Shown here in pieces: positions 5,987 through 61,070 of a DNA stretch of 64,000 nucleotides; position 1 is the first letter of the stretch, and every line of letters starts with the position of its first letter. The stretch covers positions 1 through 64,000 of the IMG/VR virus record IMGVR_UViG_3300043449_002675. One strand, 5' to 3'. The position numbers and the translations under genes are program-made. This stretch comes from a virus. The notes beneath the pieces were generated by a model, which was not told the origin of the DNA, ran no database searches, and saw only the letters and a program-made list of their open reading frames with translations.

Positions 5987-6974
5987 CGTTTGTAAGACCT
6001 GCTGAGACACCTTGAGCGGCACTGGCTGCGGCAGTTGCCGCATCGGTGTGTGTTAGATTTTTAACAAATTTGGATGTCATTTTAGCTGGTGTAATGGATT
6101 GGGTCATATCTTGAGTTGGGGATATGATTGGGACATTTAGATTACTGAGAATTTTATTGACATCATCGGCGTTGACCAAGTTTGTGTTTGTGACTGCTTG
6201 TCCTAGTGCTTGTAAATTATCTGGAGTAGCTAGGGCTTTATATGATTTTCCTATACCTGCGCCTACTGCAAGTCCGATTCCTGTTAGGAAAAGTGCTTTT
6301 GCGATAGGAACTTTATTTTTATTTGCCCATTGCAGAACATTTCCGGCAGCTTGTTTCATTTTTGGACCCAAATAATTTGCGAGTTTTGAGGTATTACCTA
6401 CAAGTTTACCTGCCATGTTTCCTATCATATGTCCGGCGGTATCTCTCCAACCTTCGTCATACTTATTTTGCAAGAAGTTGTGAAATGAGTAATCTTCGTG
6501 GTGAGGAGTTTGTACTCCCATCATTGCAGCGCCTTTATCAAAAGCTTTTCCTGCAAATTTATTCAATTGTTTATCGGCAAAGTAGGTGAGTGCTGCCAAT
6601 GGTACAGCACCGCCGCCACCTGTAAGACCTGCTGCTAATAGTGTAATTGCAAATGTTGGAGATATTCCTAATTTTTTTAGAGTATCTCCCATGGTAGAAG
6701 CTATTTGTGATGCGGTTTTAATGGCAGGTTCTGCTGCCTGCCTATATTTCTCTAAATTTTCTTGATCGAGGAATGTTGGCTGGTTTTTTTGTGTAGCTTG
6801 TTGGCCTTGTTGGTAGCCGGCTCTTAAATTATGGAAGAATCCTTTATTTTGTATTGGACCAGTAGTTTGTTGTGGATTTGCTTGTTGTTGTGCTGGTGCT
6901 TGTGGATTTGCTTGTTGTTGTGCCGGCGGCGGCGGCAATTTTTCTTCAGCAAGGTATTGTTTGAAGCTAATCAT
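5979..6974 (-). CDS. Gln-rich protein with Gly/Ala hydrophobic segments, capsid-targeting-like N-terminus (possible ejection protein)
   Basis: MISFKQYLAE; QQQANPQ repeats; FAITLLAAGLTGGGGAVPLAAL and ALFLTGIGLAVGAGIG segments. Confidence 0.7.
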   Translation of the reverse strand: MISFKQYLAEEKLPPPPAQQQANPQAPAQQQANPQQTTGPIQNKGFFHNLRAGYQQGQQATQKNQPTFLDQENLEKYRQAAEPAIKTASQIASTMGDTLKKLGISPTFAITLLAAGLTGGGGAVPLAALTYFADKQLNKFAGKAFDKGAAMMGVQTPHHEDYSFHNFLQNKYDEGWRDTAGHMIGNMAGKLVGNTSKLANYLGPKMKQAAGNVLQWANKNKVPIAKALFLTGIGLAVGAGIGKSYKALATPDNLQALGQAVTNTNLVNADDVNKILSNLNVPIISPTQDMTQSITPAKMTSKFVKNLTHTDAATAAASAAQGVSAGLTNVT

Positions 6975-7396
6975 TATTTTTGTTGTTGTTGGGGTTGTGG
7001 TTGAGCTTGCTGTTGTTGTTGTTGTTGTTGTTGTTGACCTTGTTGGGGTTGCTGCTGTTGCTGTTGAGGTTGAGGTTTTTGTTGCGGCTGTGCTTTTGCT
7101 TTTAGTTGTTGAATTGCTTGAACGTGTTTTGCAACTTCATTAGGTTTTGCTGCTAATTGTGCAAGTTGTGATACGGTGATTTTTGGCATGAGTGTTTTGG
7201 TTAGATATTCGAAAGTAGTTGCATCTGTTTTTTGCAAAGGTTCCAAAGATTTATTTGCAGTATCTGTAATGGTTTTGAAAAGAGTCTGTAGTTGACCAAC
7301 AGCGTTTTTCATAGCCTGTTGGGGATTTTGCTGTTGAGCCTGTTGCTGTTGGGGTTGTTGTTCAGACAGCATAATAAATTCTTTGAAAGTTTTCAT
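6974..7396 (-). CDS. Poly-Gln protein, capsid-targeting-like N-terminus
   Basis: MKTFKEFIMLSE; Q-rich ends; TAAATA 6 nt upstream; TAATG coupling to the next gene. Confidence 0.75.
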   Translation of the reverse strand: MKTFKEFIMLSEQQPQQQQAQQQNPQQAMKNAVGQLQTLFKTITDTANKSLEPLQKTDATTFEYLTKTLMPKITVSQLAQLAAKPNEVAKHVQAIQQLKAKAQPQQKPQPQQQQQQPQQGQQQQQQQQQQAQPQPQQQQK

Positions 7397-40000: not shown

Positions 40001-40352
40001 CCCGCCGTTATTGATTGATATATTTGGATATTTTATATTTGCTGGTACTCCTGATACCAATGTTGCTGGAGAAACTTTTACATTTGAACTAAATAAATTT
40101 AATCTTATAGAGGAGCCGGGCATAGTGCCTATTATGAATGGTCAAACACTCTATTATGTAAACAGAGCTGGGCAATCTGTGTGGGATTCACAAACTACTG
40201 GGGCTGGTGGATTTATGATGGCTATGAACAAAATGTCGAGTGAAAATCAATCAGCCGGTCATCCTAGCGATGTAATAATGGCGCAGGAAGGCATTTCATT
40301 TGTTGTGCAGACAAAAGATGGCGAAGTCAAACAAAGCGGAGAAATAAAATGA
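37035..40352 (+). CDS. Baseplate wedge gp7-like / tail protein I-domain protein
   Basis: DANVTPEPYLPLLAQMF...FKKKGTLESL motif; follows gp6. Confidence 0.7.
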   Translation: MPLKPYNQNPKTSDNILFDLYTPMSNGCFTQQPSTFDSIKIFFIARSPVLNNEFENQQITYKEDLQRAVYEVTEQYCTETDELRKQRLALLQQSLETDLATNALTPTTGTNVEPGANTNTTYYYEAQMVFCAGVACDNGAGPLWIQGEDNSTSIVQRVATDKELGNGHFAFIWEPGPIKEGDYYICYGYTMQTSAYLYKSEAKFLHFYIGAAIQNEVAIPTHAVPPEKYFTLLNAYLPRMYFEKYAVNDDSMLTLEALNKSVGKAFTDLDNQVSRIIDILDANVTPEPYLPLLAQMFALKLRSLDITRWRGQIITAVPQFKKKGTLESLTQALDQAGMQLLQYKQYWQIAWPQVYTQTLKFENDYEFILDKYTDNTLFYEFASLYELQLAHVGTTVWTSTNIAAISFSQNTKGETVLTWDPTITQLKGGDQILITYVTETMTGTQVDLYQYWKDFFVRQDIRVQNPDGYFLITPEMQPANWNMRLMPKDDPLFSVFIPIMNPFYDPVIFGMLRTDFPYSENVYNMEEYNGSLRPTTDPANMAADYLEGCSGTLSADYGLAVKIQNLSDFRISECLGIIREYTPYHAILRTLEVVGQIQDFMLPPVETIEWLIQITFNDFLIAGDAQYAFNRKSILYNYTPEVYTYTDGHGKLAFYRTDFATENTTPAAQGTLTVYNKSMVLQAQSNIRNLNSYNVTKNSCYLEILDGNYAGAYTNIIESINDFSLTIEGPAAAAFAGMAPITQNYTFGWRFSNILDNGPYTISNAYQFTISDSSINYSDYNIKTVALDGTGCYQVKIGAAYYNILLINNNSLYLENQSGSPLPATDSTGLNYEVYNPSGMQLIFESTTGDFKVCKLAKVTSTAGTPFSMTNMCIVVPNPEIYFSPDAGTNFYKFYSIDVNDPNSFYILDYTIGLTPSSVTGTVYNRLFETMGSFNFVGMVASYGSWPLFADPDVAVLQNSNFPSQYILTLDPAGANPYSYRIGVDFTTNPPLLIDIFGYFIFAGTPDTNVAGETFTFELNKFNLIEEPGIVPIMNGQTLYYVNRAGQSVWDSQTTGAGGFMMAMNKMSSENQSAGHPSDVIMAQEGISFVVQTKDGEVKQSGEIK

Positions 40353-46234: not shown

Positions 46235-49200
46235 TTGGGAACTATACTGCCAAATTCGAATTATCCTAAGACTTATGATACGGATACAAGTCTGTTTCAG
46301 GTGTATAACACCTCGCAAACCGTACTGTCTGCAACTCTAAATTCTTGGCAAACCTCCATAAACATAGTGCCAGTAGCTGTTGGAGAACCTGAGTTATGGG
46401 CTAACTCTGGATACGTGACTATTGAAGGAGAGCTAATATATTACGCCTCTGTTCACTTGGATGTGAATGGCAAAGTTGACAAGCTTTTAGAATGCATAAG
46501 AAGAACTAATGGTACTGTGCCAAGAAATTACCCCGCTGGCACTCCTGTTCGTGGGTTTGTAATAGCACAACACCATAACAATCTTGCACAGAGTATTGTT
46601 AATGTTGAAAACTTTGTTGGAACTTTGACTACAACAGATCAAGATACTATTTACTGGAAATTGCAGCAAATTGCGAACCTGCGTCCATTAACTGACGATT
46701 CAGGATGTCCGCAAATTGAATTCTATTACAGGGTCATTAGCACGAGTCCTATTGAAGGAACGGAAATTTCCTATAGTTTGAATATTATTGGAAATATAAA
46801 CAATTTTTTGATAGATTTTGGTGATGGCACTACTGAATCAACCACCCAAAACGGTACGCACTTTTATGCGCCAAATAAACGCATAGATCCAAGTGTTACA
46901 GTAACAACTGACGAATGTGATTGCTTGCAAACTAGCGCAGAAAGACTTAGAATAGACGATTTGGCTCAAAATACAATTGCTGGTCAAACGACTTTTCCAG
47001 TTATTGTGCCGCCAATTCCGGACTTCCCGAATTTGGATTTGGCAGTTGTAAATGAAGTGCCAAACAACATACAGTTCCCACCTATAGTTTTCCCTTGTTT
47101 GGATATTGGTCCATTCGGGCCAATAGTTGTTCCTAGCACAATTAGTATTGTTAATCCGTATCCAATTCCAAGTGTGATCACGTTTGAAGACGTGCCTGTA
47201 TTCCCAAGTCAGATAGTAATTACAAGTTCTGTGGTTATACCCACAAGAATAAGCATAATTGGCAATTTGCCTAGTACACTTAGTGTTATTGGCAACATAC
47301 CAAGCACAATCAGCGTTGTTGGAATTCCTTCAACTATAAATGTAGTTGCGCCAAGTAATTTAAATATAGGCATAAGTGTAATTAATACCGTCCCATGTAC
47401 AATTTCAGTAATTGGCAATATACCAAGTGTTATAGCCATAGATGATTTATCTGCTTCGCTTGACGTATTTCTAAATGGCGACTATTGCACAAATTGTACT
47501 GGTAGTACCGGTTGTTCGAATAATGGACAAACTATACAGGCTATTACAGATATAGGTTGCGACCCTTGTGCTGGCGCAAATCCAAAAATTACAAGGGTCA
47601 CGGTAGTATTACATGACTTTATAGTTACTACCTTGGATCCTGCCAATCCAGAATCTACAAGATACGATTTAGTAAAAGTCTTGATTGTTGCACCTGATGG
47701 CACAAATTGTTTGGTTATGGGAGGTGCTCAAACTGGAGCAACAACCTTCCCAGACTACACAATGAATGAACCAGTGACCCTTACATTCGCTGACGGTTCT
47801 AACAATAACATTTACGATTTTACCAAGCCCTTAGAAACAAAAACTTATGCTCCAAATGCAAATGGGAATAATGCTTCTTACACCGCTGGTCAAGTAAATT
47901 TAGGTCTTCCAGCTCCTCCGCCTACTGGGGCTACTGGGTATGGGACAAATTTGGCAGTATTTACTGATTCCAAGTTGCAGAAGGGTCCTTGGTATGCCTA
48001 CATTTCCGCAGGTCCGAGAGGCGGGGCATATACAAATATAGTAAACGTTGGGAAAGTTTGTGCTAGAGTAACTTCGGCTCAGGAATCTCCTTGTGATTTC
48101 CCATCCCCAACGCCGACATCTACTGCAAGAGTCACACAAACTCCAGTTGCAACTCCGAGGAAAACACCATTACCGACACCTCTTCCTTCTCAAAGTCCGG
48201 CTCCTACTGCTACGCCAAGACCAAGTCCTTCAGCAACTCCATTTCTACCATTTGATTTGCCAACGCCGGGACCCAACGTTACACCAATAATTCCCCCCAG
48301 ACCTCAACCACAACCCACACCACCTCCCAGACCCTCAGGCACTCCCGGACCAACTCCCGCTCCTTCTGCAACCTTTACATGTGGCACATGTACTTATGTT
48401 CCACAATTAGAGGATTGTGGTTCTGGTGTTTGCACTTATTATTGGGATGGAAGCAGCTGGGGCAGATGCGGAGAATGCACTTCTTGCGGTAGTGCGGGAG
48501 AGAACTGCGGATGTCAAGAAGCAAGAATAATGCGTGCATTTAACATTCTGCCGCCTGACGGAGAAGATAACCCTGACGTAAACACGAATTGTTACAAGGT
48601 AGTTTGGACTGATCAGTCATTGACTGATTGCAATGGTGGTTTTTGTACTTATAGTTTCAATATGACCACCAAACAATGGGATTATTTCCCAGAAGATTCT
48701 TTTTGTAGTGGTACCGGTGACAATGCCTGCAAGTGCCAAGATGCCAACAAGATTTTGGTGCCAGCCGGAATACTTCCACCAAATCCCGGCACAAATGAAA
48801 CAAAACACACAAATTGTTACAAAGTTGTTAATTCGTTAAATAACTGCACAGCGGGTAGTTGTGAGTGTCCGCCTGCTCCTACTTCTCAGTTCATAACAGG
48901 CTCCACACAACAGTTGAAATTAAATTGTGTACCAGAATGCGGACGTTGTTATAATTACTGGTCTGTAAACAAAGGCGCTCCATGTGATCCTGATCCTGCA
49001 GATTATGGTTGCAGCTACGAGTATATTGATGACGGATGGGAACGCATAAACAATTTTTGTCCTTGCGAGAATTTTGAATGTTTGGATGCCGATATAGCTG
49101 TATCTGAAGGGCTATTGACACCAGTAGGGGAGCAGGGAGAAATCGTAAGATTATCTTGTTATCAAGCAAGCTGGTATCACATAGACGATTGTGACCCAGA

Positions 49201-50896
49201 AATTGGTGATTGTCGTTGTCCTCCGACACCAACCCCTCCAGCAAGTGGTGCAAATGCAGGCAAAATATATTTAGAGGAAGCTTGCGTCCATCCAACTTCG
49301 ACACCAACCCCAACCCAAGGATGCGGATACTGCGAATATCAGTGGCAACCAAACGCATGTCCTACCGGCGGATTTTGTATTTACACATATTACGCTGCTG
49401 TTAATGGCTGGGAAAGGGTTAGTGATTGCCAAGGAGGATGCGGATGTCCAAGCATAGAAATTTTAGTTGATGGCGGAGTTTTACCTATACCATATACCGA
49501 TGGAGCCAAAGTTTCTATGAATTGCCTGCCCCCACCGGGACCTTACGCTGGCAATTGGGGTCTTTGGTACAACGGATGTACAACTAATGATTGCAAATGT
49601 CCAAACGAAACTCCTCCAGTTCAAGGGCAGTATTTCAACCAAAGATGGAATTTGAATTGCGAAATTAAAACGACGCCAACACCAACACCATCAGCTTCTT
49701 CTGGATGCGATTGCAACATAGTTGGTTCGGCATGTGGATGGCAGTGTCAAAATAGCGGTGGAACTTATAAGTGGGTGAAATTACAAGATGGCTGCAACTT
49801 ATTCTGTGCGGCTGGCTCTTGTCAGTGTATACCGCCATCAGGACCATGCTCCGCTTCTACTGAGGGTGAGGTTTCGCAAACAAAATGCACAAATATCGGC
49901 ACTGCCACACCTACACCCATGCCAACCACACCTCCTCCTACACCGAGTCCTTCATTGGGTGCATGCTTGGGATGTTTCCTTACATGGAATTACAGTACTA
50001 AGACATATGATATAAGCGGAAATAATTGTTTGGCAGCGGGATGTAATGGGTGTTATATTCCTACAGCATACCAAGGCCAAAACATAACAATGCCCTGCGC
50101 CAACAATCCCCCTGAAAGTAAATGTAGTTCAAAGCCAAGTGAAAGTTGGCCGCAGTATTGTACGTGGGAGTGTGATGGAGGCGGCAACTGGATTCTTACG
50201 TCGCAGTGCGCTGCTGGCTGTGATTGCCCGTATCCTTGGCTTAATTTGTGTAATGCATTTTCAGATGTTGTTTACGAGCTATGTAGACCAGCAGCTCCTC
50301 CAGTGAACTTTGACGGAAATACCTACGTAGATGAGGGACTTCCTTTATCAAACATGTCTGTAAATTTAGATGAGCCTACCATATCTCCTCCTCCACGCAT
50401 CATAGCTGAAGGAGTTAAGGTGGAATTGGTTCCAGTCAGCAGGGAACGAGTCAAGCTTTGCAAGTACGCTGGCAGACAGCCATTAGAGATGGTTAAACAA
50501 GGATGCGGCGCATGTGCTGTACGTACTTGTGAAAAATTCGGATTGTGTTCTCACAGTGGTGTCATAGAGGGCAGAGACGATGTTTATTGCTGTCAAATGT
50601 GCGATGAATATGATTCTGGACAACAAGTAAAAATAGAATCATCTCAATCAGCAGAAGCACCCAAGTCTGCGGCCATAACTACAACTAATAATTCGATAGA
50701 AACAAAGAGCGTAGAAAAGATAAATGCACCAGTGGCATCATCAAAAACTTTACCAAAAATTATCGATCCATTTACTGCAGCAGATGAGTATATGAAGAAA
50801 AGTAATATGGTAAAAATTGCGCCAGTCAACTTATCTATTAAAGTAGATGTAGATAACCTTATTGAAGGCAAAAATGATACGGAGCAAGGCGGATAA
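46235..50896 (+). CDS. Large modular tail fibre/adhesin (PKD, IPSTISV repeats, P-domain-like, Pro/Thr linkers, Cys-rich repeats)
   Basis: IDFGDG; IPSTISVIGN repeats; VTVVLHDF..VLIVAPDG..LTFADG..GPW; PTPTP runs; many CxY/W..W..C..CxCP units; TTG start. Confidence 0.75.
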   Translation: MGTILPNSNYPKTYDTDTSLFQVYNTSQTVLSATLNSWQTSINIVPVAVGEPELWANSGYVTIEGELIYYASVHLDVNGKVDKLLECIRRTNGTVPRNYPAGTPVRGFVIAQHHNNLAQSIVNVENFVGTLTTTDQDTIYWKLQQIANLRPLTDDSGCPQIEFYYRVISTSPIEGTEISYSLNIIGNINNFLIDFGDGTTESTTQNGTHFYAPNKRIDPSVTVTTDECDCLQTSAERLRIDDLAQNTIAGQTTFPVIVPPIPDFPNLDLAVVNEVPNNIQFPPIVFPCLDIGPFGPIVVPSTISIVNPYPIPSVITFEDVPVFPSQIVITSSVVIPTRISIIGNLPSTLSVIGNIPSTISVVGIPSTINVVAPSNLNIGISVINTVPCTISVIGNIPSVIAIDDLSASLDVFLNGDYCTNCTGSTGCSNNGQTIQAITDIGCDPCAGANPKITRVTVVLHDFIVTTLDPANPESTRYDLVKVLIVAPDGTNCLVMGGAQTGATTFPDYTMNEPVTLTFADGSNNNIYDFTKPLETKTYAPNANGNNASYTAGQVNLGLPAPPPTGATGYGTNLAVFTDSKLQKGPWYAYISAGPRGGAYTNIVNVGKVCARVTSAQESPCDFPSPTPTSTARVTQTPVATPRKTPLPTPLPSQSPAPTATPRPSPSATPFLPFDLPTPGPNVTPIIPPRPQPQPTPPPRPSGTPGPTPAPSATFTCGTCTYVPQLEDCGSGVCTYYWDGSSWGRCGECTSCGSAGENCGCQEARIMRAFNILPPDGEDNPDVNTNCYKVVWTDQSLTDCNGGFCTYSFNMTTKQWDYFPEDSFCSGTGDNACKCQDANKILVPAGILPPNPGTNETKHTNCYKVVNSLNNCTAGSCECPPAPTSQFITGSTQQLKLNCVPECGRCYNYWSVNKGAPCDPDPADYGCSYEYIDDGWERINNFCPCENFECLDADIAVSEGLLTPVGEQGEIVRLSCYQASWYHIDDCDPEIGDCRCPPTPTPPASGANAGKIYLEEACVHPTSTPTPTQGCGYCEYQWQPNACPTGGFCIYTYYAAVNGWERVSDCQGGCGCPSIEILVDGGVLPIPYTDGAKVSMNCLPPPGPYAGNWGLWYNGCTTNDCKCPNETPPVQGQYFNQRWNLNCEIKTTPTPTPSASSGCDCNIVGSACGWQCQNSGGTYKWVKLQDGCNLFCAAGSCQCIPPSGPCSASTEGEVSQTKCTNIGTATPTPMPTTPPPTPSPSLGACLGCFLTWNYSTKTYDISGNNCLAAGCNGCYIPTAYQGQNITMPCANNPPESKCSSKPSESWPQYCTWECDGGGNWILTSQCAAGCDCPYPWLNLCNAFSDVVYELCRPAAPPVNFDGNTYVDEGLPLSNMSVNLDEPTISPPPRIIAEGVKVELVPVSRERVKLCKYAGRQPLEMVKQGCGACAVRTCEKFGLCSHSGVIEGRDDVYCCQMCDEYDSGQQVKIESSQSAEAPKSAAITTTNNSIETKSVEKINAPVASSKTLPKIIDPFTAADEYMKKSNMVKIAPVNLSIKVDVDNLIEGKNDTEQGG

Positions 50897-53146: not shown

Positions 53147-53566
53147 TTAGTCCTCCGTGAAAAGATGATGCAAAGACCTTATAGCCGAAAATAAAAACAA
53201 AATCAAGAGATCAATTTCTTTTTTTTGGACCATCACTCTAGGTTGTTTTGATTTGAGACTTTTGAATTCACTCATTGTGCCGTAAAGAAGAGGCGTTAGT
53301 GTGCTTGGCAATCCTTTATAACCACGTCTGCCTAATCGGTTTATAAAATCTTGGTGATCTTTGAAATTTTCTAAGTAAAGCTGCCATTCCATAACCCTTT
53401 GATTTTGCAAATTTTCAATTTTTTGCAAAATGTTTGCTGGTATATCTCCGTTAATTACAGAAATTTTGTCAATTGTTTCAGGGTAAGAAAAATTTTCTCT
53501 ATTCGCTCCTGTGGCCAAAACTTCGACGCACTTTTTATCACGTCTAGCAAAATATAACACCTGCAT
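53147..53566 (-). CDS. Hypothetical protein
   Basis: ATG 53566 coupled by TAATG to the small upstream ORF. Confidence 0.6.
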   Translation of the reverse strand: MQVLYFARRDKKCVEVLATGANRENFSYPETIDKISVINGDIPANILQKIENLQNQRVMEWQLYLENFKDHQDFINRLGRRGYKGLPSTLTPLLYGTMSEFKSLKSKQPRVMVQKKEIDLLILFLFSAIRSLHHLFTED

Positions 53567-53700
53567 TATTTGCCACACAGCATTTTAAAAAGTTGTTCCA
53601 GAACTATGATACTTGTAGGGTCTTGAAGGTCAAATTGAGCAAAAAACTCTTTCAAACCTTCCTCAACGCCATTCAAATCTTCTTCTTTTGGTTCAGACAT
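53566..53700 (-). CDS. 44-aa acidic peptide (MSEPKEEDLNGVEEGLKEFF...)
   Basis: AGGAAG RBS, TAATG coupling; not in the ORF track. Confidence 0.45.
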   Translation of the reverse strand: MSEPKEEDLNGVEEGLKEFFAQFDLQDPTSIIVLEQLFKMLCGK

Positions 53701-54277
53701 GTATTTGCTTCCTGACTTAGATAAAGTTTCAGAATACCTGCCAATTATCTATAATGGGCACAATAAATTAGTAGCCGCTAAATTAATACTTTTAACAGCA
53801 AAGTACAGAAAATTAGATAATTTACAGTATTGTTTAGTGTTAAAAAATGATCATGCTAAAGATTTTCCTTACAACTTCGTGATTTCGCAAGGCGATTACG
53901 AAAAACAGAAGAAAAGCTTTGCAAAATTTTGTATATGCAAGGAAATTGAAGGAGGAGATCCCATTGAAAAGTTTGCACAGGAAAACAAATTGGATATTAA
54001 AATAGCAAATGCAAAAAAGGAAAAAGGACCAATATATTTTCTTGGGACCCACGAAAACTATAAATTGGCTATAAAAACAAGTGCTTCATATTACTTAAAA
54101 AATGCAGTAATAACCGATTCGGCTTTAGAGTGTGTAGAAAAAGGCTCCACGGTGATAGGCGTCGAAAGTGTTGGACTACTTGCCTGTGCCTATAAAGGCA
54201 AAAATATTATTTTGTCCAACAAAGAAAACACAAATTCATTCCGAATGATGTTTCCAGACACAAATTTACTGAAATAA
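53699..54277 (+). CDS. Divergent GT9-like protein
   Basis: TVIGVESVGLLACAYKGKNII resembles the GT9 C-terminal motif (weak). Confidence 0.4.
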   Translation: MYLLPDLDKVSEYLPIIYNGHNKLVAAKLILLTAKYRKLDNLQYCLVLKNDHAKDFPYNFVISQGDYEKQKKSFAKFCICKEIEGGDPIEKFAQENKLDIKIANAKKEKGPIYFLGTHENYKLAIKTSASYYLKNAVITDSALECVEKGSTVIGVESVGLLACAYKGKNIILSNKENTNSFRMMFPDTNLLK

Positions 54278-54332
54278 GTTGATATATAAAATACGCTGGT
54301 GTTGCATAAATATTCTAGACAAAGGAGATGCC

Positions 54333-54926
54333 ATGAGTGTTTTTCAGGTAAATTTAAATAATCAATACCAAGGCTACTTAGATATAGATCCTCAGACGGG
54401 CATTGAGTTCGAAGTAGACTATAACAATCCCTCTATACAGAGGAAAATGTATGTAGCCGGACCTAATGGCGAGAGTCTTGAGTTTAGCGATGGTCAGATT
54501 TTTACTGACTGTAATTATTGGAAAAGGTTTGCTTACCCACAGGTTCCACTAACACAAGCTTTCATCACAGTTTTGAATGACGATGGAAGTATTTGGAGCA
54601 ATAACCCAGCCGAAAACAACTACCCTGTTGTTTATGCCGAAACACTGGCTGCTGCTGGAAGCTATAGTATTGACTTTACAAATAACGGTGGATTTGCAAG
54701 CTTCTGCCAAATAAGCAACACTGGTGCTGGAGATCTGTCCGTGGAATTAAATGGTTTGCCAAGCGCTACAATAAGCATTGCAACAGGCGCAACACAAATC
54801 TTTAATTATGGGGATTTATCTTTGACTGCTCTCAACTTGACTAGCGTTGCAGGCACAACATTCCAAGTTGTTGCTGGTGTTCAGGTTACTTGCAGCCCGA
54901 TAGTAACATCTTTCGTCAACAACTAA
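54333..54926 (+). CDS. Beta-rich virion protein
   Basis: TAAATA box and AAGGAG RBS before ATG 54333. Confidence 0.65.
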   Translation: MSVFQVNLNNQYQGYLDIDPQTGIEFEVDYNNPSIQRKMYVAGPNGESLEFSDGQIFTDCNYWKRFAYPQVPLTQAFITVLNDDGSIWSNNPAENNYPVVYAETLAAAGSYSIDFTNNGGFASFCQISNTGAGDLSVELNGLPSATISIATGATQIFNYGDLSLTALNLTSVAGTTFQVVAGVQVTCSPIVTSFVNN

Positions 54927-54946
54927 GCCAAGACCGAAATACTATA

Positions 54947-54976
54947 ATAGGGGCAGAGGAATATCTCTGCCCCTAT
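54947..54976 (+). promoter_or_regulatory. Hairpin sequestering the RBS and start of the GT9 gene
   Basis: ATAGGGGCAGAG-GAATAT-CTCTGCCCCTAT(G), with CTATAAT overlapping its 5' edge. Confidence 0.6.
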
Positions 54977-55916
54977 GTTTTTTAACAATAAAGCTTTTGA
55001 AATTACTGTCAGTGGATTTAAAAAAGTTCACAACAGAATTTGCGTGTATCGGGCTGTTGGAGGCCTTGGCGACATCATAGCTATGCGCATGATATTCGAG
55101 GATTTTAAGAAAAAATATCCAAAATTTCACCTTACTTGGGCAGTGCCATACAAATATTTTCCTGTGGCAGACAAACATCCATTTGTGGATGAATTGATTC
55201 ATTTAGAAGACTTTAAAAAACACAATTATATCGAAGTGTACGACATCACAACCGCATGCGGCAAATATGAAACTATGAATGCCAAGGGCAATTTGAAAAA
55301 CAGGTCCGATATATGGGCAGAACACTTTGGCTTGAAATTAGACAGTCATAATTTGCACATGCCAAGCTATCTGGACAGAAAAGAAAAAGTAATTAAAAGA
55401 CTAACAGAGCTTGGATGGGATAAAAAAAAGAAATTAGTTGCATTTGCTCCAAGGAGTGCAATTGGTATTAAAAATATGACTTTTGAGCAAATTAAAACCG
55501 TCAAAGATATGACAAATAAATTTTTTATTTTCTGCCTTCATCACGTGCCAATTTTAGAAGTAGAACAAGTAGGAATCCCAGCGGTTTACAATTTCAGCCT
55601 TCAAGAGTGTTTATGTGCTATAGAAATTTCGGATTTCATGATTTCAACAGACACAGGCTTGATGCATGCTGCTGCCGGCTATGGAAAGCCAACTTTGGCT
55701 ACTTTTAGCTTTGTAGACGGAGAAACATACTGCAAATATTACCCAAAGGTACAAATTATACAGCTGCATTACAAGAACATAGACAATTGGTGCGGACCAT
55801 GCTATGATTATTCTAAATGTCCTTATACATCTCAAATTACCACAAAACCGTGCCAATCAGAAATATCTGCAAAAATGTTGCAAGAAAATTGGGACAAACT
55901 ATTAAATAGATTGTAG
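54975..55916 (+). CDS. Glycosyltransferase family 9 (heptosyltransferase-like)
   Basis: GGLGDII, HPFVDELI and STDTGLMHAAAGYGKPTLATF; C-terminal CxPC..C..C. Confidence 0.88.
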   Translation: MFFNNKAFEITVSGFKKVHNRICVYRAVGGLGDIIAMRMIFEDFKKKYPKFHLTWAVPYKYFPVADKHPFVDELIHLEDFKKHNYIEVYDITTACGKYETMNAKGNLKNRSDIWAEHFGLKLDSHNLHMPSYLDRKEKVIKRLTELGWDKKKKLVAFAPRSAIGIKNMTFEQIKTVKDMTNKFFIFCLHHVPILEVEQVGIPAVYNFSLQECLCAIEISDFMISTDTGLMHAAAGYGKPTLATFSFVDGETYCKYYPKVQIIQLHYKNIDNWCGPCYDYSKCPYTSQITTKPCQSEISAKMLQENWDKLLNRL

Positions 55917-55936
55917 CTATTTTACTGTATTATTAT

Positions 55937-56185
55937 ATGGCAGTACTTATTGAACCAAGTAATTTGAAAGTGATCAGCCAAAATGGACAGGTCACATTAG
56001 CCCTGCAGATTGAGTTAAATATCAATCTCAACAGCAACGTCACGACTACCGATGCTGGAAATAGTGGAGGTAGCCACAATTTCAAAACCAGCACAACACC
56101 ACTCAAAAACGCTCAAGATGAAGAAAAAACAGAATGGTTGGTCCCTGATTTTACAGCTAAAGAAAAGGTTAAGTTTGGCAAATGA
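55937..56185 (+). CDS. Small protein upstream of the actin homolog
   Basis: Beta-rich N-terminus, disordered middle, WLVPDF..VKFGK tail. Confidence 0.65.
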   Translation: MAVLIEPSNLKVISQNGQVTLALQIELNINLNSNVTTTDAGNSGGSHNFKTSTTPLKNAQDEEKTEWLVPDFTAKEKVKFGK

Positions 56186-56232
56186 GGGGAGCATATGGCA
56201 ACAATAGTCCTAGAAAAGAGAAAGGCAAAAAT

Positions 56233-57246
56233 ATGGCAGTTTCAGTTGACGTAGGCACTTATACATTGGTATCTTGTAAAAGAGATGCCGATAATAATTT
56301 TGTCTTCAAGAAAGAAATTAATGCATTTCTTGAATTGCCTTTGGAAAATCGTTTCGTATTTAACATGATGAAACAGGCTGGAGTACCGCTAATTGAGCGT
56401 GAAAATGTTGCTTATGCACTTGGCGAAGCTGCGGTAAATATGGCATATACTCTACCAAGTCTAGAGCTAAAGCGACCCATGAAAGATGGCTGCGTAAATC
56501 CAAGGGAAAAAGACGCATTCCAAATTATGTCTATTATGTTACACTCATTAATTGAACCGGTTTCAAAAGATGGCGAAACACTTTATTATTGCGTTCCCGC
56601 AAATGCCATCAATCAGGACACAGATGCTGATTATCATCAGAAAGTTATAGAATCAATTTTCCGCAGCTATGAAAGTGAACAAGGATTCAAAGTAACACCA
56701 AAGCCAATTAATGAAGCTTTGGCTTTGGTTTACTCGGAATTAGCAAATAAAATGTTTACTGGCGTTGGAATCAGCTGCGGCGGCGGCATGGTTAATGTTT
56801 GTTACGCCATGTATGGCAATCCTATATTCCAGTTTGCCATAGTAAATTCTGGCGACTGGATTGACCGTCAGGCCGCTAAGGCCACAGGCGAATCACCCAC
56901 TTTCATCAACAAAGAAAAAATGAAGGTAGATCTCACAAAGGAACCAAAAAACTTGGTGGAAAGAGCAATAATTACTCAGTACAGACTGATGATTGAAAAA
57001 ACAATTACTGGAATTAGAGATGGCTTGGCATCTGCAAAGCAATCAGTAAAATCAGAACATCCTGTTGATTTTGTTGTTGCTGGTGGAACCAGCATGGCAG
57101 TTGGTTTTGTTGAAATATTTACCGAAACTTTGAAGCAGGCTAATCTTAGCATTCAAGTTGGTGATGTAATCAGGCCAGCAGAGCCTCTTTACAGCGTTGC
57201 CAAGGGATGTTTGATTGCCGCCGAAGCAGCAGACGCAGGAACCTAA
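56233..57246 (+). CDS. Actin-fold ATPase, volactin-like
   Basis: Phosphate-1 VDVGT, RPMKDG, YYCVPA..YHQK, INEALALVYSEL, phosphate-2 GISCGGGMVNVC, GDWIDRQAA, adenosine AGGTS and VAKG. Confidence 0.85.
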   Translation: MAVSVDVGTYTLVSCKRDADNNFVFKKEINAFLELPLENRFVFNMMKQAGVPLIERENVAYALGEAAVNMAYTLPSLELKRPMKDGCVNPREKDAFQIMSIMLHSLIEPVSKDGETLYYCVPANAINQDTDADYHQKVIESIFRSYESEQGFKVTPKPINEALALVYSELANKMFTGVGISCGGGMVNVCYAMYGNPIFQFAIVNSGDWIDRQAAKATGESPTFINKEKMKVDLTKEPKNLVERAIITQYRLMIEKTITGIRDGLASAKQSVKSEHPVDFVVAGGTSMAVGFVEIFTETLKQANLSIQVGDVIRPAEPLYSVAKGCLIAAEAADAGT

Positions 57247-57261
57247 GAAAGCGAGAATTGA

Positions 57262-57717
57262 ATGACGGCTTCTAATGTACAAAAGCCGGTACACGATTTG
57301 GGTGTAGCGGCTTTTATTCTAATGCAGTCTTTTCAATTGGCAGGAAGAAAAGAAAAAAGTTTTATTTTCTCCGTGCCAAAAGAAAAACTAAAAGAATTCG
57401 AAGACAATAAAACAGCATATCTTTTTAGTGAATTTCACTACTTTGATCACTGCCTAATGGGTCTGAAAAAACTTGAAGAATACCCTTTCAGTATAAATTC
57501 TAATAAATTTGTTACAGATTTGGGTGCTGCTGCATTTTTATTAATGCATAAGTTCAAGTTGGTGGGCAAAAAAGGACGTGCATTTTACTTCGAATGCAAC
57601 AGCAAGGAAGATGAATCGCAGTTTGATGATTTAAACTTGCAGTATGCATCTTCAGTATTTCATGACTTCGATAGCAAGCTTATGAGTCTTAAAAAAATAG
57701 GCGAATTCAGCAGATAA
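57262..57717 (+). CDS. Tandem DUF5659-like domain protein
   Basis: Two copies of DLG.AAF.LM..F.L.G.K...F.F......F......Y..S.FH.FD..LM.LKK. Confidence 0.65.
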   Translation: MTASNVQKPVHDLGVAAFILMQSFQLAGRKEKSFIFSVPKEKLKEFEDNKTAYLFSEFHYFDHCLMGLKKLEEYPFSINSNKFVTDLGAAAFLLMHKFKLVGKKGRAFYFECNSKEDESQFDDLNLQYASSVFHDFDSKLMSLKKIGEFSR

Positions 57718-57741
57718 AATATATATAACTATTGAGGTTAT

Positions 57742-59001
57742 ATGACTAATTTAGCAAAACTTACAGAAGCTGCCAAAATATGCTTGACACAAAAGCAATA
57801 TTTTGGACTTGTTGATAAGATCACGAAACATATAGATGATAGTGTTGCTAAACTGGGTCTAGAACTTAAGTTGAGTGGTAAAACCATGCCAAAAAGGGGC
57901 ATGTTTGATCGCCTAAAAAACTGGTGGTCAAACATGTGGCATGGCCACTCAAATGAAAAAAATCCATATTACCAGCAAAATAAACTTGGATACTGGGGCA
58001 GACCTAGTATGCGAAATGAGATGACTCTCCATGAGTATAAGTTGCTGAAAGATCAATCTGAATCACTAGAAACAGTTCTGAACGAACGGCTTGCTCTTGA
58101 TGATTTACTGGATGATTGGCTGCGTAATTTGAAACGAGACGTATTCGATTACATGAGTCAATTCTATTACAAGAATGCTAGTACTGACTCTGGGCAAGCA
58201 TCTGGCGGAGGCAGTCCTCCTGATGACGGATTACCACCATCATCACCAGTTTCATCAACTGCGGCTCCAGAAGAAACACAATCTCATACGACAAATTTTG
58301 AGCCTGAACCAGAAGAAGAAACTGATTCCGATACAGATACTGATACAGGTGATGATATAGGTGATGAAGTTTCGCCTGCCGAGACAGGAGAAGAAGGCAG
58401 CAGTGGCGATTCTGGCGAGGAAACGACTGATAGTTCTAAGTTTTCTCCATTTGATATAACAGGTGCTGCTGGCGATGAAGACAATCGTGCGTTAAGTTTT
58501 CTTAAAATTAGAAAACAAGGTGGCGGAGATCAAAGCGGAGAGCAAAAAAGCGCAACAGATGACTTTTTAAAATCTTCAGGAACAACTGCTCCACCCGTTT
58601 CTGAGGATGATCCATTTTTAAAGTCATTTGAGCGGATGAAAACAGGTCGCCCTAAACGAAGAATTGGAACAGATGTAATACGTGCCCCTTTGTCCACCCG
58701 ACCTACAGGCAGCGGCAAGAAACAAGGTCAAGCTGGCGATAAAGGTGCAGAAACTCCAGCTGTTTCAAAACCTGCTGCGCCTTTAAGTACTGATAGTTTA
58801 TTAGCCAAAATAAAAGGGTCACGTTGGACGAAGCGGGAAGAATCATCTGCCTCCGCACATAAAAAAGTTTTAAATGAAAAGTTTAGAATATCTAAAAAGG
58901 ATATGGAAAATACCACCCTATATGAGAGAACTCTGGTGTGCTTAGATAAAATGAGAGAACTCAAGTCTGAAACATTTGCAGAAGATCTTCTACGTTCTTA
59001 G
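57742..59001 (+). CDS. Hypothetical protein with acidic/disordered middle
   Basis: 419-aa ORF, TATATA box and GAGG RBS. Confidence 0.7.
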   Translation: MTNLAKLTEAAKICLTQKQYFGLVDKITKHIDDSVAKLGLELKLSGKTMPKRGMFDRLKNWWSNMWHGHSNEKNPYYQQNKLGYWGRPSMRNEMTLHEYKLLKDQSESLETVLNERLALDDLLDDWLRNLKRDVFDYMSQFYYKNASTDSGQASGGGSPPDDGLPPSSPVSSTAAPEETQSHTTNFEPEPEEETDSDTDTDTGDDIGDEVSPAETGEEGSSGDSGEETTDSSKFSPFDITGAAGDEDNRALSFLKIRKQGGGDQSGEQKSATDDFLKSSGTTAPPVSEDDPFLKSFERMKTGRPKRRIGTDVIRAPLSTRPTGSGKKQGQAGDKGAETPAVSKPAAPLSTDSLLAKIKGSRWTKREESSASAHKKVLNEKFRISKKDMENTTLYERTLVCLDKMRELKSETFAEDLLRS

Positions 59002-59299
59002 GCGGTTCTGTAGTATCAGATACCGCCACCGTCTTGCTTTTTTCTTCTGGTTCTTCTATTTCGACTACTTTTTCTTCGGCTATAGAAATAATTTTATCAA
59101 AAAATAAAAAATTCAAACATTTGGTTTTTATATGTTCATACCAAATTCCTGACTCATCAATTTTAGTAACTTTGCCTACAAAATAATCAATCATGCTTTG
59201 TTCGTCGAATGATCTGTTTATGGATGGAACAATAAATGTAACAACTTTGTCTATGAAATACCCAAGTTCTCTTCTTTGCGCACCTGAAAGGTTCATCAT
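58961..59299 (-). CDS. Hypothetical protein (possible Sm/SH3-like barrel)
   Basis: FVGKVTKIDESGIW; coupled to the primase gene. Confidence 0.6.
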   Translation of the reverse strand: MMNLSGAQRRELGYFIDKVVTFIVPSINRSFDEQSMIDYFVGKVTKIDESGIWYEHIKTKCLNFLFFDKIISIAEEKVVEIEEPEEKSKTVAVSDTTEPPKNVEDLLQMFQT

Positions 59300-60279
59300 A
59301 TCTCCATTTTCTTGATATTTTGATTAATGTATGCCAAAACAATTTTATCATCAAATTTTTTATACAATTCATTCCAATCTTTTGTAATTTCTGGAGGTCT
59401 AACAGTCATTACATCATTATAATTGTTGTATTGGATTATTTTGTTGTACATGTTTATTTTTTCTTGGTCGCCAGCCTCATCTGCATCTAAAGCAATGACT
59501 ATGTTATAGTAGGATAGAATAATTGATTGTTTTTCACTTAGGAATTTACCGCCGCAGGCTGCGCTTTTCAATCCACATAGATGTAAGGAATAAGCATCAA
59601 ATTCTCCTTCACATAAAAACAAAGTATCGCCAATTTCTGGGAACTTGGGGAAATAAATTACATCTTCTTTGCCAACCCCAATAGCCTTTTCTGGGCCTTT
59701 ATACCTTAGCGGATTGTTTCCAAGATCTCGGCTGTTAAAATAAACAAGTTTTTTTGCAGAATTGTAATATGGGATTATTACTCTGTTTTCATATTTTCCA
59801 GAAGTGCATACCATGAAATCTTCAACGGGGATTTTCCTTGATGCGAGATACTCAGAGGCTCTCTTGTGATAGACTGTCGGAGCTTTGTTTATTTCATAAA
59901 CATTTGGGGGCAAACTAATTACTTTTTGTTCTTTTTCGTAATCGAGATCAACTCTTTCATCCAAAAAATTTATGTCGAAGTCAATTTCATCTGTATAGTG
60001 CCTGAATGTACTTTGTATTCCAAGCAATTCCATGGCTTTTTGTCTGGTACACTTTTCTACTTCCATAACCAAACTAATTAATGTGCCTTTTTTATTTGTT
60101 TTCCAGCAGTGATAAACGCCGTATCGTATTTGGTTTTTACCGCCAGAGGGATTGCACCATAATTTTTTCTTCCTATCTTCTGTAAAGATAGAATCTACGC
60201 AAATTTCATCTCCTTTAATATCAACGGAGCCGAATTTTGTTTGTGCCCAATCTAAAAATTTATCGTACAAGGTGTCCAT
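59296..60279 (-). CDS. dnaG: DNA primase (DnaG/gp61-type TOPRIM)
   Basis: YLASRKI, RVIIPYY..YFNSR, LCEGEFDA, ALDADEAG and KDWNE. Confidence 0.9.
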   Translation of the reverse strand: MDTLYDKFLDWAQTKFGSVDIKGDEICVDSIFTEDRKKKLWCNPSGGKNQIRYGVYHCWKTNKKGTLISLVMEVEKCTRQKAMELLGIQSTFRHYTDEIDFDINFLDERVDLDYEKEQKVISLPPNVYEINKAPTVYHKRASEYLASRKIPVEDFMVCTSGKYENRVIIPYYNSAKKLVYFNSRDLGNNPLRYKGPEKAIGVGKEDVIYFPKFPEIGDTLFLCEGEFDAYSLHLCGLKSAACGGKFLSEKQSIILSYYNIVIALDADEAGDQEKINMYNKIIQYNNYNDVMTVRPPEITKDWNELYKKFDDKIVLAYINQNIKKMEI

Positions 60280-60302
60280 AGATATCACCTATAATTATTC
60301 AT

Positions 60303-61070
60303 ATGAACATAGAACATCTAAGCGTTAGCCGAAGCGGATGCTTTGACCAATGCAAACAACAGTACAAATTTAGGTATCACCTCAAGGTGATACCTGCAAG
60401 GCCAGAACAGCTCTATTTTACTTATGGTAAACTTGTTCATACCGCTGCTGAGCTTTACGTATTAGGCAAAGGAAGTCGCCCCATAACTGACATTGTAAGC
60501 GATTTGCTGCAAGGAAGAATTGATTTTGAAGGCAGCGACAACATTTGCAATTTAGATGATTCGTATTATAAAAAGCTATACAAGCATGTTGCTTTTATAC
60601 AAAGATTTACAGAAAAGGTGGGTTTCGACGGAGAGATAGAATATGAAATCAAGTATGATCTTGATCCGCCAAACAACAAAAACTTTTTGGGATATATTGA
60701 TCGTTTGATTTTGAAAAATGATGAAGCAATAATTATTGATTACAAAACTTCAAAAAACAATGCATGGCGCAAAAACAAAGTTACAATTAAAAAGGATTTA
60801 CAATTAAATGCATATGCATTGCATGTTCATGAAAAATTTGGAATTGCACCAGAAAAAATACAGGCAGCTTTGGTTTATCTGGAAGACCCGCAAGTGGTCA
60901 GCACTTCTTTTACCAAAAAAGGCTTGGAAGAAACAAAAAACATTTTGAAAAACGCTTATTATTCAATTGAATCTTTCCCCGAGGATAAGGTAAAAGGTAA
61001 CGTAGGACATCACTGCACACGATGTGATTATCAAGACGTTTGCCCGTTTTTTGACAGGGCTTCCTTTTAG
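60303..61070 (+). CDS. PD-(D/E)XK nuclease, Cas4/RecB-like
   Basis: LSVSR..C, GYIDRL, IIDYKTS, QLNAYA and C-terminal CTRCDYQDVC (Fe-S ligands). Confidence 0.9.
   Translation: MNIEHLSVSRSGCFDQCKQQYKFRYHLKVIPARPEQLYFTYGKLVHTAAELYVLGKGSRPITDIVSDLLQGRIDFEGSDNICNLDDSYYKKLYKHVAFIQRFTEKVGFDGEIEYEIKYDLDPPNNKNFLGYIDRLILKNDEAIIIDYKTSKNNAWRKNKVTIKKDLQLNAYALHVHEKFGIAPEKIQAALVYLEDPQVVSTSFTKKGLEETKNILKNAYYSIESFPEDKVKGNVGHHCTRCDYQDVCPFFDRASF

Follow-up and report, generated by a model that had tools for sequence, protein, structure and literature searches.

Do some of the largest phages build an actin cytoskeleton of their own? The question is raised by a locus in the window (the whole 64,000-nucleotide stretch of viral DNA analysed here), at which a gene for an actin-fold ATPase lies between genes for two small proteins. 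The source of the window is a phage, represented by a 92 kb fragment whose estimated completeness of ~18% corresponds to a genome of roughly 500 kb. An earlier note on this DNA, made from the sequence alone, had described the locus as a volactin-like actin in a three-gene unit and had proposed that it might position phage DNA or capsids. The analysis presented here indicates that the triad is most likely a cytoskeletal cassette of the phage.

The actin gene lies within a compact run of co-oriented genes

The three genes are present between positions 55937 and 57717 as had been described, all on the positive strand, and encode a protein of 82 aa, the actin, and a protein of 151 aa (Table 1). 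They form part of a run of five co-oriented genes separated by short gaps (47 bp at most) that begins after a terminator-like hairpin, which, located just upstream of the run, is likely a transcription boundary. The reading frame of the actin overlaps the stop of the small gene, with most homologues beginning at what is M18 in the window protein. The first gene of the run, encoding a GT9-like glycosyltransferase, stops 20 bp before the small gene and is possibly co-transcribed with the triad, its membership of the unit being uncertain. The last encodes a 419-aa acidic protein that matched no family in Pfam or PHROGs; a homologue at the same position was detectable by BLAST in 24 of 58 related loci, the proteins found at this position in loci L001 and L163 are likewise of low complexity, and it is possible that this gene specifies a further component of the cassette. 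Genes for a primase and an exonuclease are found just downstream of the run, in keeping with the proximity of a primase and a nuclease to the actin that had been pointed out before. PHROGs contained no family for the small protein, the actin, or the 151-aa protein. A promoter scan was at background (20 sites versus 17.3 expected), and loose Shine-Dalgarno-like motifs preceded only 9 of the 27 start sites checked, a signal too weak to name a host.

Table 1 Features of the actin locus and their positions in the window.
Feature	Position	Strand	Remarks
Hairpin, 13-pair stem then T run	54947..54976	+	Terminator-like site found on both strands
GT9-like glycosyltransferase	54975..55916	+	First gene of run; Pfam Glyco_transf_9 3.6e-05, 23.6 bits, cut-off 22
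Small partner protein, 82 aa	55937..56185	+	ORF; candidate adaptor
N-terminal conserved segment of small protein	55937..56032	+	Consensus ...G-E...L-D-L-N-I-N-L-N; columns of alignment A1
Tail motif of small protein, W67-K82	56135..56182	+	[W/H/F]-x-[I/V]-P-D-F-x(4-6)-[I/L/V]-x-F-G-K; follows an acidic run
Actin-fold ATPase, 354 aa	56182..57246	+	Volactin PF25216; family match begins at M18, nt 56233
Phosphate-1 motif D6-x-G8-T9 (numbered from M18)	56248..56259	+	G8 invariant; D6, T9 at least 90%
Phosphate-2 loop G177...S181-C182-G183-G-G185...N188	56761..56796	+	G183 invariant; G177, S181, G185, N188 at least 90%
Adenosine-binding motif G284-G285-T...G291-F292	57082..57108	+	G284 invariant; G285, G291, F292 at least 90%
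Tandem two-module protein, 151 aa	57262..57717	+	Modules ~57283-57480 and 57499-57714
Acidic low-complexity protein, 419 aa	57742..59001	+	ORF; last gene of run
Primase	59296-60288	-	Just downstream of run
PD-(D/E)XK exonuclease	60303-61070	+	Just downstream of run

The actin belongs to Pfam family PF25216 and resembles filament formers

The actin matches Pfam family PF25216 (Volactin) along the entire profile (positions 1–321 of 321; E = 1e-66; 226 bits against a cut-off of 35), a match that was reproduced in a six-frame scan of the genome. Every motif that had been quoted in support of an intact actin-fold ATPase is present in the translation, and the preference for volactin over MreB or ParM was upheld: neither an MreB nor a ParM model from Pfam matched at E ≤ 0.1, the relatives of the window actin reach at most 22 bits with MreB_Mbl (PF06723; cut-off 27), and ParM is absent among the 60 PDB profile matches listed. 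The protein aligns end to end with WP_004965739.1 of Haloarcula marismortui pNG700 (34% identity over 335 residues; E = 2e-65). Conservation of the three nucleotide-binding motifs (Table 1) was assessed on an alignment of 106 diverse family members that included the window actin. In MreB, ParM, and actin, a Glu or Gln that follows the G-G-G loop helps hydrolysis; members of the family have a conserved Asn after G-G-G-x-x in its place, so the kinetics of the phage actin may differ.

With an AF2 model of the actin (pLDDT 95.3; pTM 0.92), the top 50 Foldseek matches comprised only MreB/Mbl, MamK (TM 0.71–0.73), BeeR, and F-actin. Searching the PDB with the single sequence yielded nothing at E ≤ 0.01; a profile was needed, and it matched MamK (3e-15), BeeR (1e-10), MreB (6e-10 to 5e-8), and FtsA (~1e-6). 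MamK, MreB, and BeeR are the nearest solved relatives, with structural alignments at TM 0.62–0.73 but identities of just 14–18%. We considered whether the protein might be a non-polymerising ATPase of the ASKHA superfamily, chaperone-like or enzyme-like, with unrelated passengers for neighbours, a reading for which the conserved Asn could be cited. We regard this as highly improbable, as filament formers account for all of the top matches in sequence and in fold, the non-filament proteins EutJ (3e-4) and DnaK (1e-3) trail MamK in the profile search by about ten or more orders of magnitude in E-value, the neighbours are kept with the actin in more than 90% of loci, and the eponymous volactin makes dynamic filaments in vivo (PMC10869688). 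Judging from its sequence and model, the phage actin probably polymerises in an ATP-dependent manner in the infected cell.

In loci L057 and L058 an intein with a LAGLIDADG endonuclease is found within the phosphate-2 loop of the actin, its junction lying between S181 and C182 as mapped through pairwise alignment with L057, and the same split layout is seen in ~14 of 150 cluster representatives. Five near-complete actin-bearing genomes of 430–572 kb each contain one copy of the actin gene, and none of the five gave a match to tubulin (PF00091). The placement of an intein in the ATP-binding loop and the presence of one actin copy per near-complete genome are signs of functional importance.

Volactin is one branch of a broad family in which the phage actins form their own clade

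The earlier note had likened the actin to the haloarchaeal volactin family. Membership of the family is supported by the Pfam match and the identity to the Haloarcula protein, but the family is not specifically haloarchaeal: PF25216 is abundant in Planctomycetota and Omnitrophota, and is present in a CPR bacterium. In a phylogenetic tree, 42 PF25216 members, among them the window actin, made up one clade (support 98), with E. coli MreB, FtsA, and R100 ParM outside it and ParM the most distant outgroup. The window actin falls in a separate clade composed of phage or unnamed metagenomic sequences only, apart from the haloarchaeal, the Planctomycetota/Omnitrophota, and the CPR clades. An acidic clade represented by P0159 had been taken as haloarchaeal, and its members proved to be from Planctomycetota and Omnitrophota; a scan of viral sequences with the metagenomic representative P0127 found no relative. 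On this view, "volactin" is a single branch within a wide family of actins, members of which occur in haloarchaea, Planctomycetota, Omnitrophota, CPR bacteria, and phages.

Both neighbours are kept with the actin in huge phages

The actin is present in 165 viral contigs, from genomes of up to ~600 kb, and has more than 1,000 protein relatives. Complete relatives with terminal repeats include genomes of 572 kb and 511 kb, and the actin of the 485 kb phage L002, at 32% identity, may represent a second acquisition. Across a set of 100 distinct viral actins, the three-gene unit recognised in the window proved to be widely conserved, the small protein being encoded on the same strand in 94 of 99 viral loci (82 of these within 100 bp of the actin) and the 151-aa protein, as one or two modules, accompanying the actin in 90 of 92. 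Order and strand of the triad are kept down to ~43% actin identity, and the layout of the small protein can be recognised by eye at 41%.

The wider context of the triad raises the possibility that the filament is a scaffold for virion assembly or glycosylation, organising a membrane- or fibre-associated site, in which case the cassette would be grouped with the glycosyltransferase gene beside it and the giant fibre genes, and not with replication. The GT9-like gene heads the run in the window and lies upstream in 42 of 58 loci, fibre-like ORFs of very large size lie upstream in the window, and in locus L140, on our reading of the ORFs, the actin pair sits amid sulfotransferase-like and glycosyltransferase-like ORFs; in addition, one member of the family carries a Wzz/BY-kinase polysaccharide co-polymerase module as a fusion. 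However, the primase and the exonuclease are equally near and are kept downstream in 33–35 of the 58 loci, the triad is retained in the roughly one-quarter of loci that have no GT9-like gene, and no membrane segment is predicted, on reading the sequences, in the actin or in either partner. We therefore think a scaffold of this kind quite unlikely. As to the cytoskeletal cassette that we favour, the glycosyltransferase and fibre genes adjoin it just as the primase and nuclease genes do, and its surroundings therefore do not mark DNA out as the cargo.

The small protein ends in a near-invariant peptide

The small protein begins with a putative beta segment, continues through a linker of variable sequence into an acidic patch, and ends in a tail that is nearly invariant, with G17, P70, F72, F80, and G81 invariant in an alignment of 41 sequences (A1). 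Its N-terminal segment, which is probably beta-rich to judge from the residues, is also found in the divergent loci L140, L141, and L142. The WLVPDF..KFGK motif that had been noticed at the C terminus is present, the window protein ending W-L-V-P-D-F-T-A-K-E-K-V-K-F-G-K, and the tail motif to which it belongs (Table 1) occurs in 90 of 94 distinct homologues, with a linker that varies freely. Within these 90 tails the Phe at the first site is found in all and the Phe at the second site in 89; Ile or Val precedes the Pro in 89, Asp follows it in 75, and Lys follows the Gly in 78. The tail drifts with the clade of the phage actin, from I-P-D-F...F-G-K to I-P-E-E-D-F...F-G-Q-K and L-P-V-A-D-F-G-Q. 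No Pfam family matched the small protein. Its placement near Aha1_N in Atlas clusters (0.81–0.84), with few shared features and within the range of chance, was set aside. Prediction of a 1:1 complex of the actin and the small protein with alignments scored 0.47, compared to 0.44 for one unrelated control, values too close to speak for or against a contact.

By analogy with other actins and their partners, the small protein may serve as an adaptor or regulator: its near-invariant C-terminal peptide would bind the actin, and its N-terminal segment would link the actin to cargo or to itself. We give this suggestion an even chance. The docking logic would be that of ParR and ParM, AlpA and AlpC, or the C-terminal peptide of FtsZ and FtsA.

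The last of these parallels can also be read in another way. The C-terminal peptide of FtsZ has the consensus D-I-P-x-F-L-R/K, and the tail of the small protein contains an I-P-x-F core; an I-P-D-F tail would thus mimic the FtsZ peptide and compete for FtsA-like sites, and the cassette would take over the host cytoskeleton, acting on MreB, FtsA, or FtsZ to halt division or to enlarge the cell for large virions. Consistent with such a takeover, MreB and FtsA are among the nearest solved relatives of the actin, some members of its family show weak FtsA-domain matches, and a cell-shape transition is the only role of volactin to have been tested (PMC10869688). Yet the drift of the tail with the phage actin clade fits co-evolution better than mimicry of a conserved host peptide, the strict adjacency of the partner genes to the phage's own actin gene suggests that the partners serve that actin, and neither terminus of the actin, on our reading of the sequence, has a membrane-targeting helix. 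On balance we consider action on the host cytoskeleton unlikely.

A small gene next to an actin gene is, furthermore, the layout of the type II partition system ParMRC of R1 and R100 (in R100, parM is followed by a gene annotated 'partitioning/stability', so that the partner is downstream there and upstream in the phage), and ParR binds ParM via its C-terminal tail. If the phage genes were a system of this type, they would keep the huge genome extrachromosomal in a carrier or pseudolysogenic state, and both the ParB-type HTH fusions seen in some PF25216 relatives and the 'provirus' label that IMG/VR attaches to two of the five large relatives could be taken to point that way. We nevertheless hold partition to be very unlikely. 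Neither Pfam nor the 60 PDB matches listed gave a ParM signal, R100 ParM lies far outside the PF25216 clade, the small protein matches no RHH or HTH family in Pfam, and the region beside the genes (53500–59400) contains no centromere-like repeat array, only pairs at chance level, although the ~500 kb genome may have such a site elsewhere. Moreover, among 72,556 plasmids the family was found only on five haloarchaeal megaplasmid records and on no bacterial plasmid.

The third protein is a tandem duplication

The 151-aa protein had been described as two DUF5659-like repeats. Alignments (A2 and A5) and an AF2 model (pLDDT 94.6) establish that it is a true tandem duplication of a ~70-aa module, each copy with the order strand-helix-strand-strand-helix-helix. 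The DUF5659 label was not confirmed: hmmscan with PF18903 (cut-off 23.6 bits) gave no match at E ≤ 10 to the whole protein or to its halves, and a six-frame scan of the contig for DUF5659 gave none either. In the complete 572 kb relative, the sole DUF5659 match, sub-threshold at 12.9 bits (E = 0.05), falls exactly on the homologous gene, and DUF5659 is a neighbour of the 151-aa protein in the language-model Atlas at 0.83, which is a lead only; the protein is possibly a distant relative of DUF5659. The relatives listed in a search with a profile of the single module were all two-module proteins, none labelled PF18903. Foldseek found nothing in the PDB at E ≤ 0.001, and the best VIA-align wide match (Z 5.1) was to a generic alpha/beta arrangement. 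A few two-module relatives bear the automatic name "regulator of sigma D", which we do not trust. Neither this protein nor the small protein showed a recognisable DNA-binding or cargo-binding fold in Pfam and structure searches.

A model for the cassette and its relation to known systems

The conservation of a volactin-type actin together with two partners in ~100 huge phages that lack tubulin makes it probable that these phages carry an actin-based system of their own that organises infection. That the triad is a self-contained cytoskeletal cassette in huge phages (of about 430–600 kb) is, in our estimation, evenly balanced. In the model we propose, the two-module protein would join the filament and its tail-peptide adaptor as a third partner, whether to bind cargo or to regulate. 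The system would organise infection in space, positioning the replicating phage DNA or the site of replication or assembly, or moving capsids, and would thereby fill the role that the tubulin PhuZ, missing here, has in nucleus-forming jumbo phages; we put this forward tentatively, at somewhat below an even chance. The model in full, a private actin cytoskeleton made up of filament, tail-peptide adaptor, and third factor that positions a ~500 kb genome or its assembly site, is more doubtful.

The closest functional precedent is AlpC/AlpA of the Corynebacterium glutamicum prophage CGP3, in which viral DNA transport and efficient replication depend on a phage-encoded actin-like ATPase and a dedicated adaptor encoded next to it, the adaptor AlpA binding DNA at defined alpS sites (PMC4446434, PMC5539076). 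AlpC, however, is set apart from the phage actin by its published descriptions as a different actin family, and unlike AlpC/AlpA the cassette includes a third conserved gene, has neither a recognised DNA-binding fold nor a repeat array in the region searched, and is found in huge, apparently lytic phages. In the Chimalliviridae, the replicating genome is positioned by PhuZ, a dynamic polymer encoded by the phage (PMC4244570, PMC13282480). A similar mode of action is possible for the cassette, whose polymer is predicted and which is also built on a phage-encoded cytoskeletal protein; PhuZ, though, belongs to the tubulin/FtsZ superfamily and acts on a proteinaceous phage nucleus, whereas the protein of the cassette has the actin fold.

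Volactin (VolA, HVO_2015, of Haloferax volcanii) shares with the phage actin the PF25216 family and the nucleotide-binding motifs, and its haloarchaeal setting is similar in that a gene upstream encodes a protein whose C-terminal peptide is conserved. That partner is a four-TM protein of ~300 aa with an acidic linker, unrelated to the 82-aa soluble protein of the phage, and the phage actins differ from volactin in being virus-encoded and in forming their own clade; we do not expect the cell-shape role of volactin to carry over to them. The gene upstream of Planctomycetota homologues likewise encodes a protein that ends in a conserved peptide, and in some relatives a ParB-type HTH is fused to the actin itself. 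Because the upstream partners of the archaea and the Planctomycetota are not homologous to the small protein of the phage, the parallel is one of architecture only, and the upstream partner with its conserved C-terminal peptide seems to be a different one in every lineage.

The literature searched, including a 2020 survey of huge phages and a 2026 review of jumbo phages, contains no description of the cassette, which is widely spread among the largest known phages. Known phage cytoskeletons amount to two cases, the PhuZ tubulin and AlpC of one prophage, and the cassette would be a third, unrelated solution; if our model is correct, it would be a private phage actin cytoskeleton, an equivalent of the PhuZ spindle built from actin. 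With one actin, two small partners, and a docking candidate of 16 residues, the system is compact and suits in vitro work. If true, the rule that the partner encoded upstream carries the docking peptide would further identify the factors that bind volactin in haloarchaea and those that partner the Planctomycetota homologues.

The phage protein is a member of the Volactin family

The actin-fold ATPase matches the Pfam Volactin family (PF25216) over its full profile (E=1e-66, 226 bits, positions 1-321 of 321), and the Pfam search reported no MreB or ParM model for it. Every motif quoted in the earlier note was found in the window sequence, and conservation of the phosphate-1, phosphate-2 and adenosine motifs extends over the whole family. 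As a single sequence the protein matched no PDB chain; a 106-sequence profile retrieved MamK (3e-15), BeeR (1e-10), MreB (6e-10 to 5e-8) and FtsA (~1e-6), with EutJ, DnaK and PilM at 3e-4 or weaker only. The best 50 Foldseek matches of a confident AlphaFold2 model (pLDDT 95.3, pTM 0.92) are filament-forming actins only, including Mbl/MreB, MamK (TM 0.71-0.73), BeeR (0.69) and eukaryotic F-actin. Because filament-forming actins lead both sets of matches, the protein does not group with non-filament ASKHA enzymes, the outcome that the earlier note had set against its own reading. The phage actin is thus predicted to form filaments, which we consider probable; that it is instead a non-polymerising ATPase seems very improbable.

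The earlier note had placed the protein in a haloarchaeal family. The family stands, but its range is wider, extending to Planctomycetota, Omnitrophota and CPR bacteria. An exhaustive search found 906 related clusters (50% identity, E<=0.001), and a word-index search found 1,078 related proteins, with PF25216 present in 120 of 120 among the matches listed. A named-genome scan with one subclade pattern gave at least 583 relatives; among the matches listed (80 of at least 583), all come from MAGs of Planctomycetota, Omnitrophota or unclassified bacteria. A CPR (Minisyncoccales) MAG is the source of one representative. Across 72,556 plasmids, the family occurs in five haloarchaeal megaplasmid records only, whose homologues are 34-36% identical over 99% of the query (pairwise E 2e-65). 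In a FastTree phylogeny with E. coli MreB, E. coli FtsA and R100 ParM as outgroups, which we used for grouping only and not for rooting because of the method and the long outgroup branches, the 42 PF25216 members all group in a single clade (support 98). Within it, 14 of 15 phage sequences share a subclade with metagenomic sequences (support 98), to which none of the haloarchaeal, PVC or CPR groups belongs, in agreement with a second grouping in the analysis.

Two partner genes accompany the actin gene in very large phages

The source contig (IMG/VR) is 91,968 bp long, the window being its first 64 kb, and its CheckV completeness of ~18% implies a genome near 500 kb. A strong hairpin precedes five genes separated by at most 47 bp, and the primase and nuclease that had been placed close to the actin gene do follow this run. 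The first ATG of the actin ORF overlaps the stop of the small gene and opens a 17-codon extension retained in the closest relatives (loci L004 and L005) only; the start site is ambiguous, since M18 (nt 56233) is where the match to the family, like the majority of homologues, starts. Three very large ORFs farther upstream presumably encode virion or fibre proteins.

Features of the window around the actin gene
Feature	Position	Strand	Remark
Very large ORF	22468-30165	+	2565 aa
Very large ORF	37035-40352	+	1105 aa
Very large ORF	46235-50896	+	1553 aa
Strong hairpin	54947-54976
GT9-like glycosyltransferase	54975-55916	+
Small protein	55937-56185	+	82 aa
Actin-fold protein	56182-57246	+
N-terminal extension of actin	56182-56232	+	17 codons
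Repeat protein	57262-57717	+	151 aa
Acidic low-complexity protein	57742-59001	+	419 aa
Primase	59296-60288	-	after the five-gene run
PD-(D/E)XK exonuclease	60303-61070	+	after the primase

Among 50,697 deposited phage records, tblastn located the actin gene in two uncultured huge phages (595 kb and 485 kb) and in no isolated phage. Scans of IMG/VR gave 56, then 165, related contigs, several of 430-572 kb. Five near-complete genomes each carry exactly one actin gene, and none has a tubulin homologue. Conservation of the neighbours in other phages, a check proposed at the outset, was borne out over 100 distinct viral actins: the small-protein HMM detected a same-strand ORF in 94 of the 99 loci whose upstream flank was long enough, 82 of the 94 lying no more than 100 bp from the actin, and the repeat-module HMM gave a hit in 90 of the 92 whose downstream flank was long enough. 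At 43% actin identity (L141 and L142) the two partners are still present, the genes sometimes being separated by inserted genes; at 41% identity (L140) a 72-aa upstream ORF has the small-protein layout by eye, and no module protein lies near the actin.

The 419-aa protein, which follows the module gene and whose long, acidic centre is of low complexity and rich in Ser/Pro/Thr/Gly, is a possible fourth component of the cassette. Homologues could be detected by sequence in 24 of 58 loci, and L001 and L163 encode low-complexity proteins in a similar position.

Inteins tend to occupy conserved functional sites of important genes. Two loci (L057:5995-8142 and L058:1930-4059) have an actin split by an intein that bears a LAGLIDADG homing endonuclease, between S181 and C182 in G-I-S|C-G-G-G of the phosphate-2 ATP-binding loop, and ~14 of 150 cluster representatives, about 680-770 aa long and matched in two stretches, have the same split layout. 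In L142 the small gene and the actin are separated by an ORF resembling an HNH endonuclease (1987-2343), an ORF of this kind lies upstream in L141 (197-520), and 0.7-0.9 kb is inserted between the small gene and the actin in L025, L032, L039, L044 and L049-L052. The insertions splitting or flanking the cassette look mobile.

The small protein has the layout of a docking protein

Alignment of 41 small-protein homologues revealed a conserved N-terminal segment of ~30 residues (consensus ...G-E...L-D-L-N-I-N-L-N), a freely varying linker, an acidic patch and a C-terminal tail. The tail follows the pattern [W/H/F]-x-[I/V]-P-D-F-x(4-6)-[I/L/V]-x-F-G-K in 90 of 94 distinct homologues, its first F being invariant and the second site F in 89 of the 90. 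The protein has no Pfam or PHROG family. By analogy, such an architecture, in which a disordered linker joins an apparently folded or oligomerising head to a short peptide kept invariant at the end, is that of linear-motif docking proteins. ParR binds ParM through such an arrangement, and FtsA is bound in the same way by the C-terminal peptide of FtsZ. We give about even chances to the putative docking of the small protein on the actin through its tail. In L002 (LR745208.1, a GC-rich 485 kb phage; 5337-6984), whose actin is 32% identical, falls outside the main phage clade and could be a second acquisition, a 207-aa upstream ORF overlapping the actin start replaces the small protein; its D-D-V-M-F-I-P-S-N-L could be a remote form of the tail motif.

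The repeat protein is built of a ~70-residue module duplicated in tandem, whose signature (D-L-G-x-A-A-Y-x-L-M-H ... F-D-S-x-L-M-S-L-K-K-I) is strongly conserved; in a few loci the module stands singly. Its model is confident (pLDDT 94.6), with strand-helix-strand-strand-helix-helix in each module, and has no convincing match among solved structures. Of the earlier description as DUF5659-like repeats, the two-module structure holds, while the label was not confirmed by HMM. Two weak signals agree with it: the sole DUF5659 match in a complete 572 kb relative (E=0.05) falls inside the repeat-protein homologue, and DUF5659 occurs in 37% of members of one Atlas neighbour cluster (score 0.83).

Cellular relatives recall the pairing of the actin with an upstream gene for a tail-bearing protein, with partners not homologous to the phage small protein. 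The haloarchaeal upstream gene (L224:2426-3334, Haloarcula; L225:2300-3199, Halogeometricum) encodes a protein of ~300 aa that is predicted to have four TM helices; its acidic linker is long, and it ends in a conserved peptide, ...R-S-L-F. Volactin filaments contact the membrane by their tips, and volactin-binding factors are yet to be found (PMC10869688); the four-TM protein is a candidate membrane anchor for these filaments. In MAGs of Planctomycetota and Omnitrophota (L060-L139), where PF25216 actins are very common, the upstream protein ends in a conserved L-x-K-L-K/R-x-L-like peptide.

Possible roles of the cassette

Of the readings considered, a filament system encoded by the phage, with two partners dedicated to it, has the best support. 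It might position phage DNA, the replication or assembly site, or capsids, a role we propose tentatively. That the cassette takes over the machinery of the host for shape or division is an unlikely alternative reading of the same genes. A ParB-type HTH is present as a fused domain in some cellular relatives; in five Planctomycetota loci (L099, L101, L103, L109, L111) a 620-930 aa paralogue beginning with this HTH lies directly downstream of the stand-alone gene (~4030-4150 onward), so these bacteria carry tandem paralogues, one fused to a DNA-binding domain. Around the phage cassette (53500-59400) we found no centromere-like repeats, and in neither partner could a DNA-binding fold be recognised; a ParMRC-type partition system is, in our estimate, highly unlikely. 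A metagenomic relative (P0210, 1160 aa) combines a volactin-family domain with Wzz, GNVR and a ParA-like BY-kinase module in one fusion; judged by these domains, the family would in some organism be tied to the machinery for polysaccharide chain length or export. That the phage cassette is a scaffold for virion assembly or glycosylation we regard as improbable.

Phage cytoskeletal polymers are already known in PhuZ (PMC4244570) and AlpC/AlpA (PMC4446434, PMC5539076). The cassette uses a different actin family, AlpC/AlpA being judged by its published description, and has two partners without an above-threshold match to any curated family. We found no published description of it in the literature searched, outside which lie most subscription-journal papers. 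The filament system with two partners that we favour would be encoded by an actin cassette widespread in the largest phages.
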